From a virus, in IMG/VR virus record IMGVR_UViG_3300045988_073059, positions 1 to 31,797 of that record: a stretch of 31,797 nucleotides of DNA; one strand, written 5' to 3'. Positions 861-7,758 of this stretch are shown here, piece by piece; position 1 is the stretch's first letter, and every line of letters begins with the position of its first letter. A model generated the notes under the pieces. The model was not told the origin of the DNA. It did not search any database and worked only from the letters and a program-made list of their open reading frames with translations. The translations under genes and the position numbers were made by a program.

Positions 861-1205
861 TTAGCTGACTGAATCAGCAAGCCATCTATCCATCTCATCG
901 CAGGTAATCATGTAGCCCCGCTCTTGTCCAGCTGGCTTGATAAACTTGAGTGCTCCTGCCTTATGCTCTGCTCTGAGCATTGAGCCTGGAATACCAGAGT
1001 ATTTAGAGGTTTGAGCAATCGTGTAAGCAAGCTGTGGTGGAAGTCCCGCAAGCACTGCTGCGTTGAGTGAGCGAGAGCCGTTCACGGTTCCCGTCTTCTC
1101 TGCAAGCTCTCTTTGCGCTTCAGCAGAAGCAATCATGAACTTCTCAAAGAGCTTTGCGAGCACGCTCACGTCTGCGGTAATTTCTTTCTGCTTCGTTGAT
1201 GTCAT
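861..1205 (-). CDS. DNA-binding protein with an excisionase/MerR-like HTH; candidate Xis or early regulator
   Basis: ATG 1205 has a GGAGGTG RBS 5 nt upstream; the track start at 1208 is TTG. The segment YTIAQTSKYSGIPGSMLRAEHKAGALKFIKPAG..YMITCDEMDRWL resembles excisionase-family HTH domains. Confidence 0.6.
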   Translation of the reverse strand: MTSTKQKEITADVSVLAKLFEKFMIASAEAQRELAEKTGTVNGSRSLNAAVLAGLPPQLAYTIAQTSKYSGIPGSMLRAEHKAGALKFIKPAGQERGYMITCDEMDRWLADSVS

Positions 1206-1371
1206 CAATCCACCTCCAAACAGGAATAGTGATTGCTATATAGGGGAGAAGTCCAACAATGCCACAGACTGAAAACGTGGCATAAATAAGAGCAAATAAG
1301 ATGCCTGTCATAACTGAGCAAACATAAGCTCCAACGGCAATCTTCTTGATTTGAAGCGGTATACTCTTCAT
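1144..1371 (-). CDS. Small membrane protein (two hydrophobic helices, basic C-terminal tail)
   Basis: ATG 1371 has a GGAGGTG RBS upstream. The sequence contains IAVGAYVCSVMTGILFALIYATF and VCGIVGLLPYIAITIPVW, followed by NYRRRERARKAL. Its 3' end overlaps the next gene by 62 nt in another frame. Confidence 0.55.
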   Translation of the reverse strand: MKSIPLQIKKIAVGAYVCSVMTGILFALIYATFSVCGIVGLLPYIAITIPVWRWIDDINEAERNYRRRERARKAL

Positions 1372-1395
1372 ATGTTCACCTCCGCGGAGAACAGA

Positions 1396-1433
1396 GCCCT
1401 TACGCTATGCGACAGCGTGAGGGCAAACTTTTT
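1396..1433 (+). terminator. Strong stem-loop followed by a T-run on the plus strand, inside the 303-bp untranslated spacer
   Basis: GCCCTTACGCT (1396..1406) pairs with AGCGTGAGGGC (1414..1424) across a 7-nt loop. There is one U-G pair on the plus transcript, which becomes a C-A mismatch on the minus transcript. AAACTTTTTA follows. No plus-strand gene lies upstream, so the role is unclear. Confidence 0.35.
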
Positions 1434-1674
1434 AGATTGGGTTTGCATAGCAACAAAGCGTCTATGCCCGCTCTTCACGCTTAGCGTGGCGGACTGTAAG
1501 GTCCTACATGGTTATCACTACGACCATGCAACGTTATCTGGATACCATTAGCCATTCACTTTATTGCGACAGGTACTCACCAACTCAAGAAGCTGAGCAA
1601 GTGTTGTTGCTTTCCCTGTAACGATTTACGTCTATACGGTTTGCAAGGTACATAAAAAGAAGGATGGAAAATAC

Positions 1675-1896
1675 CTATTTAACGTTAGTTAAACTAGCAT
1701 TTCGACCGAAAAAAATACTCTCGTAACTACGGCTTAAAACAGCGCAGATACGTCTAGCTTGCAAAACGGTTGCAATGGCTGGATTTTCTTCAATTTTCTT
1801 GTATGTTTGACGAGAAATACCCAGTTCATCAGCCATTTCCTGCATAGTAATACCAGCAGCTTTGCGGGCTTCAAAAAGTGATTCATTTCGTCTCAT
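1675..1896 (-). CDS. Cro-like XRE-family HTH regulator
   Basis: Track ORF is 1675..1968. I moved the start to ATG 1896, which follows GGAGAGGAGG. The HTH is GITMQEMADELGISRQTYKKIEENP. It is divergent from the CI-like gene. Confidence 0.8.
   Translation of the reverse strand: MRRNESLFEARKAAGITMQEMADELGISRQTYKKIEENPAIATVLQARRICAVLSRSYESIFFGRNASLTNVK
1682..1700. promoter_or_regulatory. Second operator-like site, ACGTTAG-TTAAA-CTAGCAT
   Basis: It has the same 7-5-7 architecture as the 1940..1958 operator and matches it at 15 of 19 positions. It lies at the 3' end of the cro-like gene. Confidence 0.45.
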
Positions 1897-1939
1897 GCTT
1901 AACACCTCCTCTCCAAGGCGTTTAATTTGGTTGTTTAGT

Positions 1940-1958
1940 ATGCTAGATAAACTAGCAT
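1940..1958. promoter_or_regulatory. Operator: perfect inverted repeat ATGCTAG-ATAAA-CTAGCAT
   Basis: Read directly. It covers the -10 and spacer of the cro-side promoter and abuts the -35 of the repressor-side promoter. Confidence 0.7.
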
Positions 1959-1968
1959 TGTATGTCAA
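1940..1968 (-). promoter_or_regulatory. Early (cro-side) promoter: TTGACA, 17-nt spacer, TAGCAT
   Basis: On the minus strand the -35 TTGACA is plus 1963..1968. A 17-nt spacer separates it from the -10 TAGCAT at plus 1940..1945. Confidence 0.6.
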
Positions 1969-1986
1969 GAGATTTTAACGTAAAAT
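1958..1986 (+). promoter_or_regulatory. Repressor-side promoter: TTGTAT, 17-nt spacer, TAAAAT
   Basis: The -35 is at 1958..1963 and the -10 at 1981..1986. The -35 boxes of the two divergent promoters overlap at nt 1963. TTAACGT occurs at 1679..1685, 1975..1981 and 1998..2004. Confidence 0.5.
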
Positions 1987-2018
1987 GTAAAAAATAATTA
2001 ACGTCAGGAGGAAACCTC

Positions 2019-2675
2019 ATGGCTATCAGGGAAAACATTATTAAGCTTCGCGAGATGAACCAGATTACCCAGGAGCAACTGGCTGAGATTGCGGGTGTCT
2101 CAAGAGGTGCTGTCTCTCAGTGGGAGGGTGGATTCTCTGAGCCACGTATGGGTGCAATCCAACGCATGGCTGACTACTTCAATATCTCCAAGAGCAACAT
2201 TATTGAAGACGGCGGAATGAACGCTTGCTACCGCTCAAGTATTCCAGGAGTCATGAAGGTAAGAGGATACGAGGAGACATACATTCCTCTTTTGTCCTTT
2301 GGCAAGGTCCATGCTGGTTCTTTGACTGATGAAGAAGCAGCTGAGAAGACAATCAATATCCCCTCTAATGTAGCCAACAATCATCCCAATGCCTTTGCTC
2401 TCGAGGTTGAGGGGAGCTGCATGAACCACGTTATCCCTGAGGGTGCTCACATCTTAGTAGACCCGGATGTGTATCCCTCTAATGGATCTATTGTCGTTGC
2501 TGAGACTGAAGACTACCAAGCAATCATGAGACGTTGGTACAAAGGTAGCAAGAGTCTTATGCTCGTGGCTGACAGTTATGAGGAGTTCGAGGACATCATC
2601 TTTACTGACGACGAGCATCCAATCAAGGTTGTTGGTGTTGTTATTTGGTATCAAGCAGCAGAAGAAATGGGATAG
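2019..2675 (+). CDS. CI/LexA-like repressor: XRE HTH plus S24 autopeptidase domain
   Basis: The RBS is CAGGAGG. The HTH is ITQEQLAEIAGVSRGAVSQWEGG. A candidate Ala-Gly cleavage site sits in VHAGS. The S24 motifs are GSCMNHVIPEG (Ser nucleophile) and RRWYKG (Lys). Confidence 0.9.
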   Translation: MAIRENIIKLREMNQITQEQLAEIAGVSRGAVSQWEGGFSEPRMGAIQRMADYFNISKSNIIEDGGMNACYRSSIPGVMKVRGYEETYIPLLSFGKVHAGSLTDEEAAEKTINIPSNVANNHPNAFALEVEGSCMNHVIPEGAHILVDPDVYPSNGSIVVAETEDYQAIMRRWYKGSKSLMLVADSYEEFEDIIFTDDEHPIKVVGVVIWYQAAEEMG

Positions 2676-2684
2676 GAGACTACA

Positions 2685-3299
2685 ATGAAACTGTTTGATT
2701 TCCTACATAACAGAAGAGACAAAAAAGATACTCTATACAGTAAGAAGGATAATCCTTTGCAATCTCAAGCCGAAACAAACGAAATAATGGATGAGATTAG
2801 AAACGAGTATTTTCCGAGATTTGATGAACCTCTTACTAATTACGTAATAGATCCTAGACTTCTTCCTGTTTACGAATTAGTCCAAGAAGCTTTTGAAATT
2901 GATCCTGCTATTCCTATGCCAAATGCAGCTCTTCTTGAAGCTACGAGATGTCCAGAAATTCCAAATGTTATTAAGACGTTTGTTTGTGAACCAACTAAAA
3001 GCGGGAAAGAGCCAAAATATGTAACGAAGCTTGTTTTCGGGCTCTACGGGACGATGAGAAAGAATCAACTTGGTACGTGGTATGGAGGTGAAAATGGGTC
3101 TCACGGAGAAATTTGGTATTTGAAAAATCTTGTTCCAGGAAAAGTAAGAGTTGATATATGGGAAGATAAAACCCACTGGTCAATTCGTGGAAAAATAATA
3201 GACGGGTCTTTGCATCTTGCGTATGTAGAAAGATGCTATCCAAACGAGCTTTCAAAAAGAATTTACGACTACAAAAAATCTATCTTTCCTAAAGCTTAG
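2685..3299 (+). CDS. Hypothetical 204-aa soluble protein; AT-rich cargo gene behind the repressor
   Basis: An AGGAG RBS follows 9 nt after the CI stop. There is no TM segment and no motif I recognise. A hand-counted 60-nt line (2701..2760) is 33% G+C, against 57% for line 2101..2160 in the CI gene. Confidence 0.7.
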   Translation: MKLFDFLHNRRDKKDTLYSKKDNPLQSQAETNEIMDEIRNEYFPRFDEPLTNYVIDPRLLPVYELVQEAFEIDPAIPMPNAALLEATRCPEIPNVIKTFVCEPTKSGKEPKYVTKLVFGLYGTMRKNQLGTWYGGENGSHGEIWYLKNLVPGKVRVDIWEDKTHWSIRGKIIDGSLHLAYVERCYPNELSKRIYDYKKSIFPKA

Positions 3300-3490
3300 T
3301 AAGCAACAAGAAAAAGATTGCTGACAGCTCAACGATGATGACAGATAGATGAATCTCGTATTTATCCATAGCAGATCTCCTCTCTTATTCGATGAGAGCA
3401 TAAGAGGGAAGTAACGGAATAAAAAGCTCCCTCACATCCGCCAAGACGCTAAGGGAGCAACTTCCATCTCGTTAGGAAGGTATATACATT

Positions 3491-4597
3491 ATGCCACGTA
3501 AACGTTCTTCATGGGGTTCAAACCAGCCAATGGGTCCTGGGAAACGCAGAATCCGCTATATGGCAGACACAGGAGACGGTAGAGGGTTCACAAGACACTC
3601 TGAGACCGTCTATGGCACACGCAAACAAGCTGATGAAGTATTAGCGCAAAGACGCATAGAACACAGCCAAGACAAGCCTGTGCCAACGCTTAGGCAAGCT
3701 TATGAGACGTGGCTTATCCCAGAATTTGAGGACAAGCTTAAACATGATGAATTAAGAGCAAACTCATACAATCTATATAAAAGGATGTGGGACTGCCATG
3801 TAAAACCTACATTTGGAAGCTTGCCAATTACCGCAATTAAGCCTCTTGGTATCCAGAAGTGGCTGCTTACGATGACTCAAGAGGTTGCAAAGGTGTCACT
3901 TATGGTACTTCGTAGAGTACTCGATAAGTGCGTCATGCTTGAATTGCTACCAGCAAACCCTGCAAGCGTTACGTACAGAATGCCAAAGCAGTCAAACAAG
4001 CTTGATACGACTGTTTACTCGCTTAGTGAACTTTGCGAGGTTCTAGAAGCTCTGCGTGGCTCTGTCGCATATATCCCAGCTATTCTCTGTGGTATTGGTT
4101 CATGCCGTGTTGGTGAGTCGCTGGGTGTAAGAACAGAGAACATTATGTCTTATGAATACGCAGGCATGATTCTTGCCATCATTGACATTGATGTACAAGT
4201 AAACAATAACGGGGAAGTGTTAGATAAGTTAAAAACAGCACAAAGCAAAAGACCTATAGTTATTCCAGAGCCATGGTCAAAAGATATTCTCTCTATCAAT
4301 ACAAGTTGGCTCACCGATACAGGCTATGGGAAGCCAGTAAGCCAGTATGTAGTACGCCGTGCATGGGGTAAGCTCATTAAAGATAAGAATCTCAAATACA
4401 TCCCATTTAGGAATCTGCGTAACTCTTGGCGAACTATTATGCGTTGGGAATTAGGTATAGATTCTGACTATGTAGAGAAGATGATGGGGCATGCTGGAAA
4501 GAACGTTGGAGAGATCTATTACGACCGACCGCAATGGCAACAGTTTGCTGATGTTGTAGGGGAAGCGTGGACTCGATACCGCGCAAAGAGTAATTAA
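3491..4597 (+). CDS. int: Tyrosine recombinase / phage integrase
   Basis: It has an Arg-rich N-terminal arm-binding-type region and a SAM-like core. The C-terminal catalytic signature is RNLRNSWRT...MMGHAGKNVGEIYY (R..H..Y). Confidence 0.9.
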   Translation: MPRKRSSWGSNQPMGPGKRRIRYMADTGDGRGFTRHSETVYGTRKQADEVLAQRRIEHSQDKPVPTLRQAYETWLIPEFEDKLKHDELRANSYNLYKRMWDCHVKPTFGSLPITAIKPLGIQKWLLTMTQEVAKVSLMVLRRVLDKCVMLELLPANPASVTYRMPKQSNKLDTTVYSLSELCEVLEALRGSVAYIPAILCGIGSCRVGESLGVRTENIMSYEYAGMILAIIDIDVQVNNNGEVLDKLKTAQSKRPIVIPEPWSKDILSINTSWLTDTGYGKPVSQYVVRRAWGKLIKDKNLKYIPFRNLRNSWRTIMRWELGIDSDYVEKMMGHAGKNVGEIYYDRPQWQQFADVVGEAWTRYRAKSN

Positions 4598-4600
4598 CGG

Positions 4601-4619
4601 TTAGGACATTTTAGGACAT
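4601..4619 (+). repeat. Tandem TTAGGACAT x2 at 10-bp phasing; candidate integrase arm-type sites
   Basis: The sequence is ttaggacatt ttaggacata, starting 4 nt after the int stop. Confidence 0.5.
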
Positions 4620-4767
4620 AAACAGGTATTACATAGCATTTTAACTGGTCTTTTGTTCTATCTCAAATACGGAGCAGATATTATCCAGTTGTATTTGTAT
4701 ATTTCATACTATAGTTTACCTGCGGTTATATAAAATTGTGGTCTTCTAAATTAGCGTATTTTTATAG

Positions 4768-4790
4768 TTTAGGACACGCTAAGGACATAA
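4768..4790 (+). repeat. Second pair of AGGACA sites (TTTAGGACAC GCT AAGGACATAA), same orientation
   Basis: AGGACA occurs at 4771..4776 and 4782..4787. A variant, TTAAGACAT, is at 4871..4879. Together with 4601..4619 these bracket an AT-rich stretch of about 150 bp, which is the likely attP core. Confidence 0.45.
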
Positions 4791-4909
4791 ATTCTTATGT
4801 CTGTTCTACGCTTTATATTATCTAGTTTGTGGCTATGTTTCCCCAGTTAAACGGCTTGTTGTAAGCCGTTTTAAGACATGCAAAAATCAAGCTGGAGTAT
4901 TTACCCATG

Positions 4910-4941
4910 AAAAAAGCCCTCATCTAATTGAAGATGAGGGC
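4910..4941 (-). terminator. Rho-independent terminator of the 4954..5745 operon
   Basis: The stem is GCCCTCATCT / AGATGAGGGC (4916..4925 and 4932..4941) with a 6-nt loop. On the minus strand TTTTTT follows it. Confidence 0.8.
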
Positions 4942-4953
4942 AAATTGTTGCGC

Positions 4954-5382
4954 TTATTGCTTCGGAACTAAGTTCTCCGCTCCGCTGATCCAATCAGTCT
5001 CAATTCCTCGCTCATGGAGCGCATACGAGACAATTCGAGCGGTTGCATTAGCCTGTCTCCAATCTCCTCCATCGTCTATGCAATGGTGCTCATCGTATTC
5101 CGCTTGTGTGGACCAGTAGACCAGCTTCACGCTTGCTGGGTAGCTTCCAACCTCTTGTGCAGCTTCTTCAACCTGTCCCAGGGCAGCGGATACCACTTGA
5201 CGCTGTAACTTCAACGCATCGTCCAGGATGTCCCACGCGTCCTGTGGTGCGTTGTACTCTTTGTACTTGACGCTTTCCCACCGCTTCACGGAACGCTCTG
5301 AGACCTCAAGCGCGAGTGCCATGTCTGCCTGGCTCATTCCAACCTGCTCACGTAGAGCCTTGAACTCTTGTTTATTTCTCAT
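4954..5382 (-). CDS. XRE-family HTH protein with an uncharacterised C-terminal domain of about 80 aa
   Basis: The RBS is AGAGGGGA. The HTH is MSQADMALALEVSERSVKRWES. I did not recognise the C-terminal part (..VKLVYWSTQAEYDEHHCIDDGGDWRQANATARIV..). Confidence 0.8.
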   Translation of the reverse strand: MRNKQEFKALREQVGMSQADMALALEVSERSVKRWESVKYKEYNAPQDAWDILDDALKLQRQVVSAALGQVEEAAQEVGSYPASVKLVYWSTQAEYDEHHCIDDGGDWRQANATARIVSYALHERGIETDWISGAENLVPKQ

Positions 5383-5402
5383 GTGTATCCCCTCTAAGAG
5401 TA

Positions 5403-5422
5403 AGCCCCTCTTGCGAGGGGCT
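5403..5422 (-). promoter_or_regulatory. Intercistronic GC-rich hairpin (8-bp stem, GCAA tetraloop on the mRNA strand) without a U-tract
   Basis: AGCCCCTC-ttgc-GAGGGGCT lies between the stop of 5434..5745 and the RBS of 4954..5382. Confidence 0.5.
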
Positions 5423-5433
5423 GTCTTGCTTTC

Positions 5434-5745
5434 TTAGAACTCCTTGCCCTTTGCTGCTTCAAAAAAGAAGTTCATTGCTGCTTCTTTGTCGAGTACAAGA
5501 ACCACACGACGGCGAGTGTTCTTCTGGAAGTACCAGTAAGCTGTACGCTCTGGTGTGTCGTGCTTTGGAAGGTTGGTCTTGCTGTACTCTTTGCGCTCAA
5601 ATCTTGTAACGAACGGTGGAAGTGCCTTTGTGTGCTTGGTTGAGTAGCGACCGCTGACCCACTCACTGGATGGAACACACCCGTCCCTGTCCATGATTGC
5701 CATGAACTCGGTGAGCTGCTTTGCGGAAGTCTTGGTGAATTTCAT
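5434..5745 (-). CDS. Hypothetical 103-aa protein, first gene of the post-lysin cargo operon
   Basis: The RBS AAGGGGA precedes ATG 5745. The protein is basic and soluble, with no motif I recognise. Confidence 0.7.
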   Translation of the reverse strand: MKFTKTSAKQLTEFMAIMDRDGCVPSSEWVSGRYSTKHTKALPPFVTRFERKEYSKTNLPKHDTPERTAYWYFQKNTRRRVVLVLDKEAAMNFFFEAAKGKEF

Positions 5746-5801
5746 TTTGTTCCCCTTCTCTGGGCTGAGGTATGACCTTTTGTCTCCCTCTTGTTATTTA
5801 T

Positions 5802-5830
5802 AATATAGTCCCGTTTGGGGACTAAGTCAA
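5802..5830 (-). promoter_or_regulatory. Near-consensus sigma-70-type promoter (TTGACT, 17-nt spacer, TATATT) with an inverted repeat filling the spacer
   Basis: The minus strand reads TTGACT TAGTCCCCAAACGGGAC TATATT. The inverted repeat is TAGTCCC-N5-GGGACTA (5806..5824). An A/T-rich tract with repeated TAGAA(A)TTTT lies upstream. Confidence 0.7.
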
Positions 5831-5864
5831 GCAGAATTTTAGAATTTTTTTAGAAATTTTTGGC

Positions 5865-5899
5865 ATAAAAAATACCCCTCCCGCCGAAGCGAGAGGGGT
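5865..5899 (-). terminator. Rho-independent terminator ending the late/lysis operon
   Basis: The stem is ACCCCTC / GAGGGGT (5874..5880 and 5893..5899) with inner CGC/GCG pairs. On the minus strand TATTTTTTAT follows it. Confidence 0.75.
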
Positions 5900-5945
5900 T
5901 ACAAGTCTAGTCTTGCACTCTTTCGAGCAGCTCTAGACGTATTAC

Positions 5946-7010
5946 TTAATGCAGTGAAGTCAATCGACCGGCTTCATCGGTATCAACTTGCACCGTGCTG
6001 TCAGCCTGGACAGAGCCATCAGCGTTGACTGCGTAAGCATGGTTATTGTGAACGTGAACTCCAGCGGGAAGCAGGTTGCCATTCTCAGAAGCAAGATACT
6101 TCTTTCCTTCCGCGTCAAAGATACCCGTTGCCATGCGACCATCATTGGCAAAGTAGTAGTCACAGCTTCCGATATGCTGCATTCCTGTCAGCATGGCGCA
6201 CTCTTGTGGTCCTTCATCCGGGCAAAGGTAGAACCAATCTGCGCCATCAAAGTACCATCCCGTGACTGCGTAACCTCGAGCATCGAAGTAGTACCAGGAA
6301 CCATTGATGAACGCCCACTGACTGTAGTAATACGTGCTAGGGCTGGTTGCATACCACCAGCCTGTGGAGTTCTTGACCCAGTGTGGCTCAAAGTTAGACT
6401 CACCCTGTGAGAGCTGCTCCCACTCTGCGTAAGTGAGCTTAGCCACATCCAGGTCAACAGTACCGCCAGCACTAGAGTATTGCCAAATGGTCCAATCGCT
6501 CCACGCACCAGTGTTATAGATCATGGCAGGCAAGTCCCACGAGAAGCGATTGTCTGGGTATCCTGCAATCCATAAGCGAGATACATCAGCGCAAGACGCT
6601 ACCTGTGAGCGTCCAGCGGGGTAAGTGTACACAACCGGGTAGATGCCAGTCTTAGCATAGACGCGGTCAACAAACTGCCTTGCCCAGACGGTTGAGCCCC
6701 ATGCATCGTTGTCACCGTTCTCCCAGTCTAAGCACAGTAAAGCCTTACCAATGTAGGCAGAGACGCAAGCCACGAATGCGTCAGCTTCTGCTACGGGTGA
6801 GCCTCCTTCCGCATAATGGTACACACCAATAAGCTTACCGTCAGCGAGAGCGCGCTGAAGCTGTGCAGTCATGTAACGGTTCATTGGCTGTGTGCCTTGA
6901 GTTGCCTTAGCAATGACGAAGTCAGAACCACTGTATGCAGTCTCAACATTAGGATGCGAGTATGTTGCACCCAATGCCTGATAACCGCTAACGTCAATGC
7001 CCCTAAGCAT
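5946..7010 (-). CDS. Endolysin: GH25 muramidase plus CW_binding_1-type (choline-binding-like) cell-wall-binding repeats
   Basis: GH25 motifs are GIDVSGYQ, DFVIAKATQG, GVYHYA and LDWE. The C-terminus carries aromatic repeats such as GWWYATS..YYYS, NGSWYYFDARGYAVTGWYFDGADWFYL and CDYYFANDGRMATG. Confidence 0.9.
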   Translation of the reverse strand: MLRGIDVSGYQALGATYSHPNVETAYSGSDFVIAKATQGTQPMNRYMTAQLQRALADGKLIGVYHYAEGGSPVAEADAFVACVSAYIGKALLCLDWENGDNDAWGSTVWARQFVDRVYAKTGIYPVVYTYPAGRSQVASCADVSRLWIAGYPDNRFSWDLPAMIYNTGAWSDWTIWQYSSAGGTVDLDVAKLTYAEWEQLSQGESNFEPHWVKNSTGWWYATSPSTYYYSQWAFINGSWYYFDARGYAVTGWYFDGADWFYLCPDEGPQECAMLTGMQHIGSCDYYFANDGRMATGIFDAEGKKYLASENGNLLPAGVHVHNNHAYAVNADGSVQADSTVQVDTDEAGRLTSLH

Positions 7011-7368
7011 TATCTACCTCTTCCTTTGTTGGCTCTTCTTTTGGTTGTGTATTAGTTGGCTCAGTGTTGCCTGTCATGTAACTTGCAGGACGCTCAGAAG
7101 GCTGTACATAGGTCATTGCACGGGCAGAGTCGCTTAGTCCCTTAGTTGTTGGGTCAACCGTGACACCGATAGCACCAAGCACCGCCACGATCACTGTGCC
7201 AATCAAGTATGGATTGTTAATAAACTTCACAAATACATCAGCAAGGCTGCCCCATGTAGTCAAATCGGAATAAGCAAGTCCGAGATATGCCAGGACAGGG
7301 CTCATGACGATTCCAGCCATTCCAAGCCACCAAGCGGGGTTATGCAAGCGTACCTTCCAATTAATCAT
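7003..7368 (-). CDS. Holin (phi LC3 family-like)
   Basis: The N-terminus MINWKVRLHNPAWW and the signature GVTVDPTTKGLSDSARAMTY are characteristic. There are two hydrophobic helices. It overlaps the lysin start by 8 nt. Confidence 0.85.
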   Translation of the reverse strand: MINWKVRLHNPAWWLGMAGIVMSPVLAYLGLAYSDLTTWGSLADVFVKFINNPYLIGTVIVAVLGAIGVTVDPTTKGLSDSARAMTYVQPSERPASYMTGNTEPTNTQPKEEPTKEEVDNA

Positions 7369-7380
7369 GTCGATTCTCCT

Positions 7381-7758
7381 TTACTTCTCAAGCTTAGTAA
7401 TGCGTGAGTCTAGGTTTTTTACGTCCGTTTTGACCTCGGCGAGGTCTGTTGCTGCTTTTTTTGATACTTCATCCGCCCTTCGTGCGACAATTCCAACCAC
7501 AGAAAGCTCTGCCGTGTGCTGCGTGAGCGTTGCAGTCAAGTCGGAGAGAGACTGTTGATACTTGCCAAGCTGCTCATTCATGACTTGCTGTCGCGTCTCT
7601 AAGCGTGTGAGGGTGTTTGTGATGGTGCTCTTCCATGCGTCTTCTTTTTCCTTATCTTCTCGACTAGCACGCTGCCAGTTCGAGATAGCAACAAGACCGC
7701 CCAAAAATGCACCAACAATAGAGATGAAGAAGGAAACCATTTCAGCTGTAATGTTCAT
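7381..7758 (-). CDS. Membrane-anchored coiled-coil protein (XhlA-like, lysis-associated)
   Basis: I moved the start to ATG 7758, which follows AAGGGGTGAGG (track start is 7809). The single N-terminal TM segment is VSFFISIVGAFLGGLVAI, followed by a long coiled coil. Confidence 0.6.
   Translation of the reverse strand: MNITAEMVSFFISIVGAFLGGLVAISNWQRASREDKEKEDAWKSTITNTLTRLETRQQVMNEQLGKYQQSLSDLTATLTQHTAELSVVGIVARRADEVSKKAATDLAEVKTDVKNLDSRITKLEK

Follow-up and report, generated by a model that had tools for sequence, protein, structure and literature searches.

What is the function of the two-gene operon that lies between the endolysin and integrase genes of the viral contig IMGVR_UViG_3300045988_073059 (IMG/VR)? 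We analysed positions 1 to 31,797 of this record, a stretch of 31,797 nucleotides that we refer to as the window. The operon consists of a cargo gene encoding a 103-amino-acid protein, here called geneA (5434..5745, minus strand; an open reading frame (ORF) preceded by the Shine–Dalgarno (SD) sequence AAGGGG), and a gene encoding a 142-amino-acid helix–turn–helix (HTH) protein (4954..5382, minus strand). An earlier interpretation of the bare nucleotide sequence, the sequence-only reading, had described an autonomous cargo operon of either the anti-CRISPR–anti-CRISPR-associated (acr–aca) or the toxin–antitoxin type, and all the elements it had listed were found where it had placed them, on the minus strand. 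We judge it probable that the locus is an Aca2-type, self-limiting, immediate-early accessory operon with acr–aca2 architecture, whose cargo is likely a defence inhibitor. Regulator, operator, leader and exchangeable cargo slot all support the acr–aca-like proposal; the anti-defence role of the cargo is something we infer.

The HTH protein matches generic XRE-type HTH domains alone in Pfam (HTH_31/HTH_3, residues 6-63). When a profile built from 25 members of its family was searched against the PDB, it matched Aca2 (7ezy) with an E value of 2.2e-4 over residues 7-116, an alignment that spans both the HTH and the C-terminal domain. Direct comparison of the family with the Aca2 (7ezy) sequence by hhalign gave a probability of 96.2% and an E value of 2.3e-9 over 98 columns, at 26% identity. 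R30 of the window protein aligns with R30 of Aca2, mutation of which abolishes repression (PMC6765145). The AlphaFold (AF2) model of the protein has a predicted local distance difference test (pLDDT) score of 94, and its top Foldseek match in the PDB is SO3848 (2ox6), with a template modelling (TM) score of 0.80 when normalised to the query and 0.70 when normalised to the target. The Aca2 structures 7ezy, 7vjo and 7vjq matched over 131-133 columns (TM 0.65-0.70 query-normalised, 0.77-0.81 target-normalised), and YdiL (1s4k) was also among the top matches. In the paper describing the Aca2 structure, matches to both Aca2 domains are limited to two proteins, SO3848 and YdiL (PMC8434428). The Foldseek matches to antitoxins, C-proteins and Aca1 were restricted to the HTH half, with query-normalised TM scores of 0.35 or less for C-proteins and antitoxins. 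The sequence-only reading had noted an XRE-type HTH, which stands, and a C-terminal domain that it could not name, which we assign as the Aca2/YdiL dimerisation domain; the profile and structure searches it had proposed as a check identified the protein as an Aca2 homologue. By analogy with Aca2, it is probably an autorepressor of its own operon.

A regulator of this kind would need an operator, and the operon has a strong candidate. The predicted sigma-70-type promoter (5802..5830, minus strand) consists of TTGACT (5825..5830), a 17-nucleotide spacer and TATATT (5802..5807), with hexamers that agree with the consensus at 10 of 12 positions. The spacer is filled by a perfect inverted repeat of 19 bp, TAGTCCC-N5-GGGACTA (5806..5824, N5 = CAAAC), which overlaps the -10 hexamer by 2 nucleotides; this placement agrees with the published position of Aca2 IR1 (PMC6765145). 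Upstream lies an A/T-rich, UP-element-like tract with phased A-tracts (5831..5864, minus strand; AAAAATTTCTAAAAAAATTCTAAAATTCTGC), conserved in the related loci L001-L009, L017, L044 and L053-L055. The promoter, its internal repeat and the A/T-rich tract, all described from the nucleotides alone, are thus present and also conserved in relatives. More than 20 independent related loci have promoter, palindrome, 5′ untranslated region (5′UTR) and intercistronic hairpin at identical positions, a recurrence that places them beyond chance. In L017, L044, L054 and L055 the same promoter precedes different cargo genes.

The 7-bp arms of the palindrome are invariant in nine IMG/VR relatives and in several prophages of metagenome-assembled genomes (MAGs), and the 5-nucleotide centre drifts between loci (CAAAC, TAAAG, GTATG, GCAAG, GAAAG). 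In the prophage of Lancefieldella parvula DSM 20469 (L008), the repeat reads TAGTCCT-N5-AGGACTA, a symmetric, compensatory double change. The L008 HTH protein is exactly Apar_0597 of this strain, and its recognition region reads RERSVRRWES, compared with SERSVKRWES in other loci. More distant loci, with HTH proteins 29-62% identical, have other palindromes, equal in overall size and in position between -35 and -10, with the arms ATGTCCTA/TAGGACAT, TGTCGC/GCGACA, TGCTACC/GGTAGCA, TGTACTA/TAGTACA and ATGATACC/GGTATCAT. The half-sites (GTCC, ATACC, GTCGC, CTACC, GTACT) vary in step with the recognition helix. Invariant arms around a variable centre, the double change in L008 and the covariation of half-site and helix argue that the operator is under selection, as would be anticipated if a dimeric HTH protein recognises its own promoter. 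Very probably, then, the HTH protein uses the palindrome as its operator; its predicted target DNA is TAGTCCCCAAACGGGACTA. No further copy was found in the window with up to 3 mismatches allowed, so the site is single and the window provides no evidence for multi-operon control.

Downstream of the promoter, the predicted transcript begins with a structured 5′UTR of about 50 nucleotides (5746..5795, minus strand), delineated by folding and covariation. Its first hairpin, SL1 (5767..5790, minus strand), has a purine-rich 5-nucleotide loop; the 3′ arm of a second, smaller hairpin (5753..5764, minus strand) is part of the SD sequence, which is therefore partly paired. The minimum-free-energy fold yields both hairpins (z = -3.1), and the 5′UTR is conserved whatever gene stands downstream. 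In an alignment of 11 sequences, 6 of the 7 pairs of SL1 show changes on both sides. Paired cells make up 82% of SL1, as against 62% in shuffles (0 of 500 as good) and 34-51% when the partners are slid; the structure was drawn from the same 11 sequences on which it was tested, which makes the slide control the fairer test. From this alignment we built a covariance model, which finds the motif outside its seed in L041, L020, L028, L038, L036, L053-L058 and L060. Nearly all its matches lie upstream of an HTH gene and on its strand, including every match with an E value below 0.1. No Rfam family matched anywhere in 4850..5950. Aca2 reportedly binds two 5′UTR hairpins and blocks the ribosome-binding site (PMC13551039), and an Aca2 'actino-motif' has been described by Birkholz et al. 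(2024, Nature, as cited in PMC13551039). The 5′UTR element is probably this actino-motif or a variant of it.

The regulatory parts recur with changing content. We defined 35 units, each extending from promoter/5′UTR to HTH gene, from IMG/VR contigs, European Nucleotide Archive (ENA) and Logan assemblies, and GTDB genomes. They contain 50 ORFs that cluster into 31 cargo families, with one HTH family throughout, and are carried by phages, prophages and one relaxase-bearing element. The 103-amino-acid gene is the commonest cargo (11 of 35 units). Unrelated genes replace it in sister phages whose promoter, operator and 5′UTR are the same and whose HTH protein is 83-90% identical: a 78-amino-acid gene in L054, genes of 100 and 64 amino acids in L044 and L055, and genes of ~84 and 120 amino acids in L017. 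The blastn breakpoints are sharp: the 5′ ones fall at the cargo ATG, the 3′ ones at the GC hairpin or the HTH ribosome-binding site. Gene swapping upstream of a conserved HTH gene had been predicted before any relatives were compared, and the 31 cargo families joined to one HTH family bear this out. No significant match was obtained for 26 sister cargo proteins, 20 of which were searched in Pfam and the other six in PDB sequences.

Some loci contain a tandem second promoter/5′UTR unit that has no HTH gene of its own and precedes further small orphan genes (L046/L018, 1585..1672 and 2495..2582; L056, 77..129 and 1371..1423; L041, 5055..5104 and 5409..5456). One regulator may control several adjacent units in these loci, in agreement with the proposal that Aca proteins control neighbouring operons (PMC13551039). 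A small, very acidic family (pI ~4.2) with the motif GEF..D[YF]D.DAI...RYW also recurs in the cargo slot (L046, 1670..1864; L021, 5404..5607; L022, 5756..5998; L025, ~5599), beside HTH proteins 39-62% identical to that of the window. It is a second attractive anti-defence candidate and may be a DNA mimic.

One of the two 3′ breakpoint sites is the intercistronic hairpin. Between the two genes the sequence-only reading had placed a GC hairpin with an 8-bp stem, a GNRA-type loop (GCAA) and no U-tract; it is present at 5403..5422 (minus strand), and no U-tract follows it on the sense strand. Across loci a conserved stem carries differing loops (GCAA, GTGA, GCGA, GAAA, GCTA). One locus has a G.U variant in the stem, which points to selection at the RNA level. 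In L017, where the cargo differs, the hairpin is retained along with the HTH module; the equivalent place in L050 is taken by another hairpin, and in L056 a 97%-identical copy closes the second, HTH-less operon. We speculate that the hairpin marks the 5′ edge, or recombination boundary, of the HTH module, and that it stabilises the mRNA or attenuates weakly, keeping the HTH protein below the cargo. The minimum-free-energy fold also contains an outer stem (5380..5440, minus strand), formed between UUCUAAGA in the geneA stop-codon region and UCUUAGAG, which lies immediately before the SD sequence of the HTH gene. We considered this stem as a translational-coupling device and set it aside, as L017, with its different cargo, lacks it. 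On the plus strand, 5403..5422 is followed by a T-rich tail and has a terminator-like score; in this orientation the hairpin could stop antisense transcription from the integrase/att side.

What does the cargo itself reveal? The 103-amino-acid protein is basic, with an isoelectric point (pI) of 9.8, and its AF2 model, the one cargo structure predicted here, shows a confident alpha/beta fold (pLDDT 89.8). It has no match in Pfam, PHROGs, NCBIfam or PADLOC; a profile search of the PDB was empty, and the best Foldseek match there had an E value of 5. Foldseek against BFVD retrieved its own family only. The protein had been described earlier as lacking a recognisable motif, and the empty family and fold searches are in line with this. 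The family is small, with 78 representatives at 50% identity in a profile search of 1.84 billion representatives; its few long matches are repeat-protein artefacts or are fused to no informative domain. The GenBank phage and plasmid collections contain no DNA or protein match, and a genome scan with the geneA profile found none.

A copy of geneA ~97% identical lies on a 32.8-kb contig that encodes SSB, ParA, NikA/MobC and a relaxase; the plasmid-like or integrative and conjugative element (ICE)-like elements with geneA are L050 (Logan SRR26708940_4, 1174..7483) and L056 (an Atopobiaceae MAG). The HTH protein beside the ~97%-identical copy has 160-163 amino acids and is 55% identical to that of the window, its operator is ATGTCAC-N5-ATGACTA, and the intercistronic hairpin differs. 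A nearly identical cargo beside so divergent a regulator therefore indicates recent movement of the cargo between cassettes and between types of mobile element. Anti-defence genes are known to cluster in the leading regions of plasmids, near ssb (PMC11541004). More distant geneA homologues (44-65% identity) are solitary in early phage regions, with no Aca2-like neighbour; geneA stands without an adjacent HTH gene in L010-L012, L052 and L061-L066, at least six other phage contexts. Its neighbours there are dUTPase, ThyX, ParB_N, TAGT-family transglycosylase and DnaC-like genes. Together, these contexts fit a dispensable, mobile and early-acting function.

Some of these distant homologues (L063/L064, 3624..5221; L010, 2745..4119) adjoin ParB_N nuclease-like genes, which are accompanied by a TAGT-family (DpdA-like) transglycosylase or a PAPS-reductase-like gene. 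Gene sets of this kind are typical of phage DNA-modification (anti-restriction) modules.

We propose the following mechanism. Upon DNA entry, host RNA polymerase would fire the near-consensus promoter without a phage factor, giving a burst of cargo and HTH protein. The HTH protein, dimerised through its Aca2/YdiL C-terminal domain, would then bind the 19-bp palindrome and occlude the promoter, and this repression would leave a low, steady expression that persists in the lysogen. The two-hairpin 5′UTR with its partly paired SD sequence probably adds translational control, with protein binding suggested by the analogy with Aca2. The GC hairpin probably favours the cargo over the HTH protein, through stabilisation of the upstream mRNA or weak attenuation; this step is speculative. 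The 103-amino-acid protein would be one of many orphan cargoes, most likely a host-defence inhibitor for which CRISPR-Cas is only one possible target. This role is our best guess; it follows from association with an Aca2-type regulator and, loosely, from the clustering of anti-defence genes around ssb.

The closest characterised relative of this arrangement is acrIF8-aca2 of Pectobacterium phage ZF40 (PF08965). Both are short operons of temperate phages in which the regulator is the last gene, and both regulators combine an HTH with a C-terminal dimerisation domain and share R30. Aca2 is controlled through a strong sigma-70 promoter with an internal inverted repeat (PMC6765145) and through 5′UTR hairpins (PMC13551039). 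The window has the corresponding parts: a strong sigma-70-type promoter, here predicted, with an inverted repeat in its 17-nucleotide spacer; a structured 5′UTR with hairpins adjoining the ribosome-binding site; and upstream genes that vary between loci. The two systems differ in several respects. The regulators share ~26% identity, with the window protein below the Pfam threshold; the host belongs to the Actinomycetota (Atopobiaceae) rather than the Proteobacteria; the half-site is TAGTCCC instead of the TTCG core of ZF40; and the 5′UTR hairpins do not repeat the DNA operator. Neither AcrIF8 nor any other validated Acr is related to the cargo, and the intercistronic GC hairpin is an addition. 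The Aca2 actino-motif loci, as outlined in PMC13551039, are similar in having actinobacterial Aca2 homologues, a promoter DNA motif and a two-hairpin RNA motif just past the transcription start site.

Other regulators resemble this one in part. The AcrIIA1-anchored acr loci of Listeria prophages also lie between the endolysin and the prophage end and also combine an autorepressing HTH protein with variable small genes. In those loci, however, AcrIIA1 is the first gene, is itself an anti-CRISPR and has a different fold, whereas here the HTH gene is last and its product has the Aca2 fold. C proteins of restriction-modification systems and the antitoxins HigA, MqsA and HipB are likewise small dimeric XRE-type autoregulators with palindromes in their own promoters, but the match to them is confined to the HTH domain and their partner genes are fixed, not exchangeable. 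YdiL (1S4K) and SO3848 (2OX6), the latter being the best structural match, share the Aca2 fold. In contrast to the window protein, they are chromosomal, not on mobile elements and have no acr context (PMC8434428).

Several observations weigh against reading the locus as an Aca2-type anti-defence operon. The existence of Aca2/YdiL-fold regulators outside acr contexts (YdiL and SO3848, PMC8434428) means that the fold alone is no proof of such a role. The window HTH protein was not matched by PF08965 (Aca2_YdiL) at the Pfam curated threshold, and 6 of the 25 members of its family match it weakly (best E value 0.0049). Judged from sequence and model, the protein is a remote member of the Aca2 family or a separate subfamily, not a textbook Aca2. 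No homology ties the 103-amino-acid protein or the tested sister cargoes to defence inhibition: neither geneA nor any of the 26 sister cargoes showed homology to a validated anti-CRISPR in Pfam- and PDB-type searches, which included no dedicated Acr database. Many DNA-mimic inhibitors are acidic, and this protein is basic. Finally, the distant geneA homologues lie among nucleotide-metabolism and replication genes, a setting that an ordinary early function fits too.

The setting of the operon in the prophage raises the first alternative. The carrier is a temperate, siphovirus-like phage of oral Atopobiaceae (Lancefieldella/Atopobium): the closest copies of the HTH gene are in uncultured Atopobium MAGs (88-94% identity), with further copies in other Atopobiaceae, Olegusella, Olsenella and human oral metagenomes. 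From alignment with integrated prophages, whose homology to the window breaks off near position 4843, we place the att site at that point; the operon is thus the last transcription unit before the att junction (~100 nucleotides). Past the junction, a host tRNA-Arg(TCT) gene follows at 250-360 nucleotides in four independent integrated copies (L045, 4287..4363; L053/L054, 4787..4863; L008, 7150..7226), and tRNA-His and tRNA-Lys come next in three of them; the window itself encodes no tRNA gene. A location at the very end of the integrated prophage, with its own promoter and terminators, is the classic position of a 'moron', a prophage-expressed lysogenic-conversion or superinfection-exclusion gene that provides defence or another benefit, here at a level set by the HTH protein. 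An autorepressor would also leave basal expression in the lysogen, as for Aca2 of ZF40 (PMC6765145). However, the cargo has no PADLOC match, its occurrence in early regions and on a relaxase-bearing element fits a function at entry better than one in lysogeny, and the regulator and UTR architecture is of the type characterised for anti-defence operons. We therefore regard a moron as unlikely.

The second alternative is an ordinary early accessory gene, for example one for nucleic-acid binding, replication or host takeover, that has come under an Aca2-like regulator and has no role in immunity. The basic charge of the protein would suit nucleic-acid binding, the neighbourhood of dUTPase, ThyX, ParB_N, TAGT and DnaC-like genes would suit replication, and the non-acr contexts of Aca2-fold regulators (PMC8434428) make such a combination conceivable. 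Against this stand the dispensability and interchangeability of geneA, whose place is taken by unrelated genes in sister phages that share the promoter, UTR and HTH gene, and its presence on a plasmid-like element; neither exchangeability nor a plasmid location is typical of core replication functions. We give this explanation little credence. Least probable by far is a toxin-first type II toxin–antitoxin module (HigBA- or MqsRA-like), the second option of the sequence-only reading: a small gene followed by an XRE-type HTH gene, a palindrome in the promoter and weak, sub-threshold HTH matches to the MqsA, HipB and Xre antitoxin families would suit a 103-amino-acid toxin and an HTH antitoxin/autorepressor, but an obligate pair is excluded because geneA is solitary elsewhere and has moved between divergent HTH genes, one HTH family serves 31 unrelated partners, the protein matches no toxin family or fold, and the full-length fold of the HTH protein is that of Aca2/YdiL, not of HigA or MqsA.

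The borders of the cassette are compatible with an Aca2-type operon that is expressed on its own. Upstream lies the endolysin gene (5946..7010, minus strand; GH25/choline-binding in Pfam), and the late/lysis operon ends in an intrinsic terminator (5865..5899, minus strand) with an 11-bp stem (5874..5899) followed by ATTTTTT and a T-tail to ~5865, which insulates the cassette from the lysis/late operon. The operon has its own terminator (4910..4941, minus strand), a 10-bp stem (4916..4941) followed by TTTTTT and a T-tail to 4910; sister loci retain this terminator, and their stems show compensatory changes. A strong predicted promoter between two canonical terminators upholds the autonomy that had been claimed for the operon. 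The integrase gene (3491..4597, plus strand) is convergent with it. Between the integrase gene and a LexA/cI-like repressor gene (2019..2675) we also observed an ORF of 204 amino acids (2685..3299, plus strand) for which Pfam, PHROGs, NCBIfam and PADLOC gave no match, possibly an accessory or defence gene expressed during lysogeny.

Aca-anchored operons have been the most productive route to new anti-CRISPR and anti-defence proteins. It is conceivable, and we advance it tentatively, that the 103-amino-acid protein and up to ~30 sister families are new immune-system inhibitors of oral Actinomycetota, carried by a plug-and-play cassette with fixed junctions that passes among phages and conjugative or mobilisable elements. 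The 5′ junction would be the cargo start codon that follows the promoter–operator–UTR module, the 3′ junction would be the GC hairpin that opens the regulator module, and the 5′UTR would possibly be a new variant of the Aca2 RNA element. A literature search did not reveal the CRISPR type of the host. The cultured lysogen L. parvula DSM 20469, which carries the operon with the orthologue Apar_0597, is an available test system.

To our knowledge, the Atopobiaceae are a clade with almost no phage biology, and the locus extends the Aca2 family to phages and plasmid-like elements of the human oral members of this group. Its regulatory logic is already known for Aca2, in Actinobacteria included, and involves no new principle. 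The value of the finding lies in the cultured lysogen and in a list of ~31 orphan cargo families as candidates, for which the operator, the 5′UTR hairpins and the intercistronic hairpin are now mapped.

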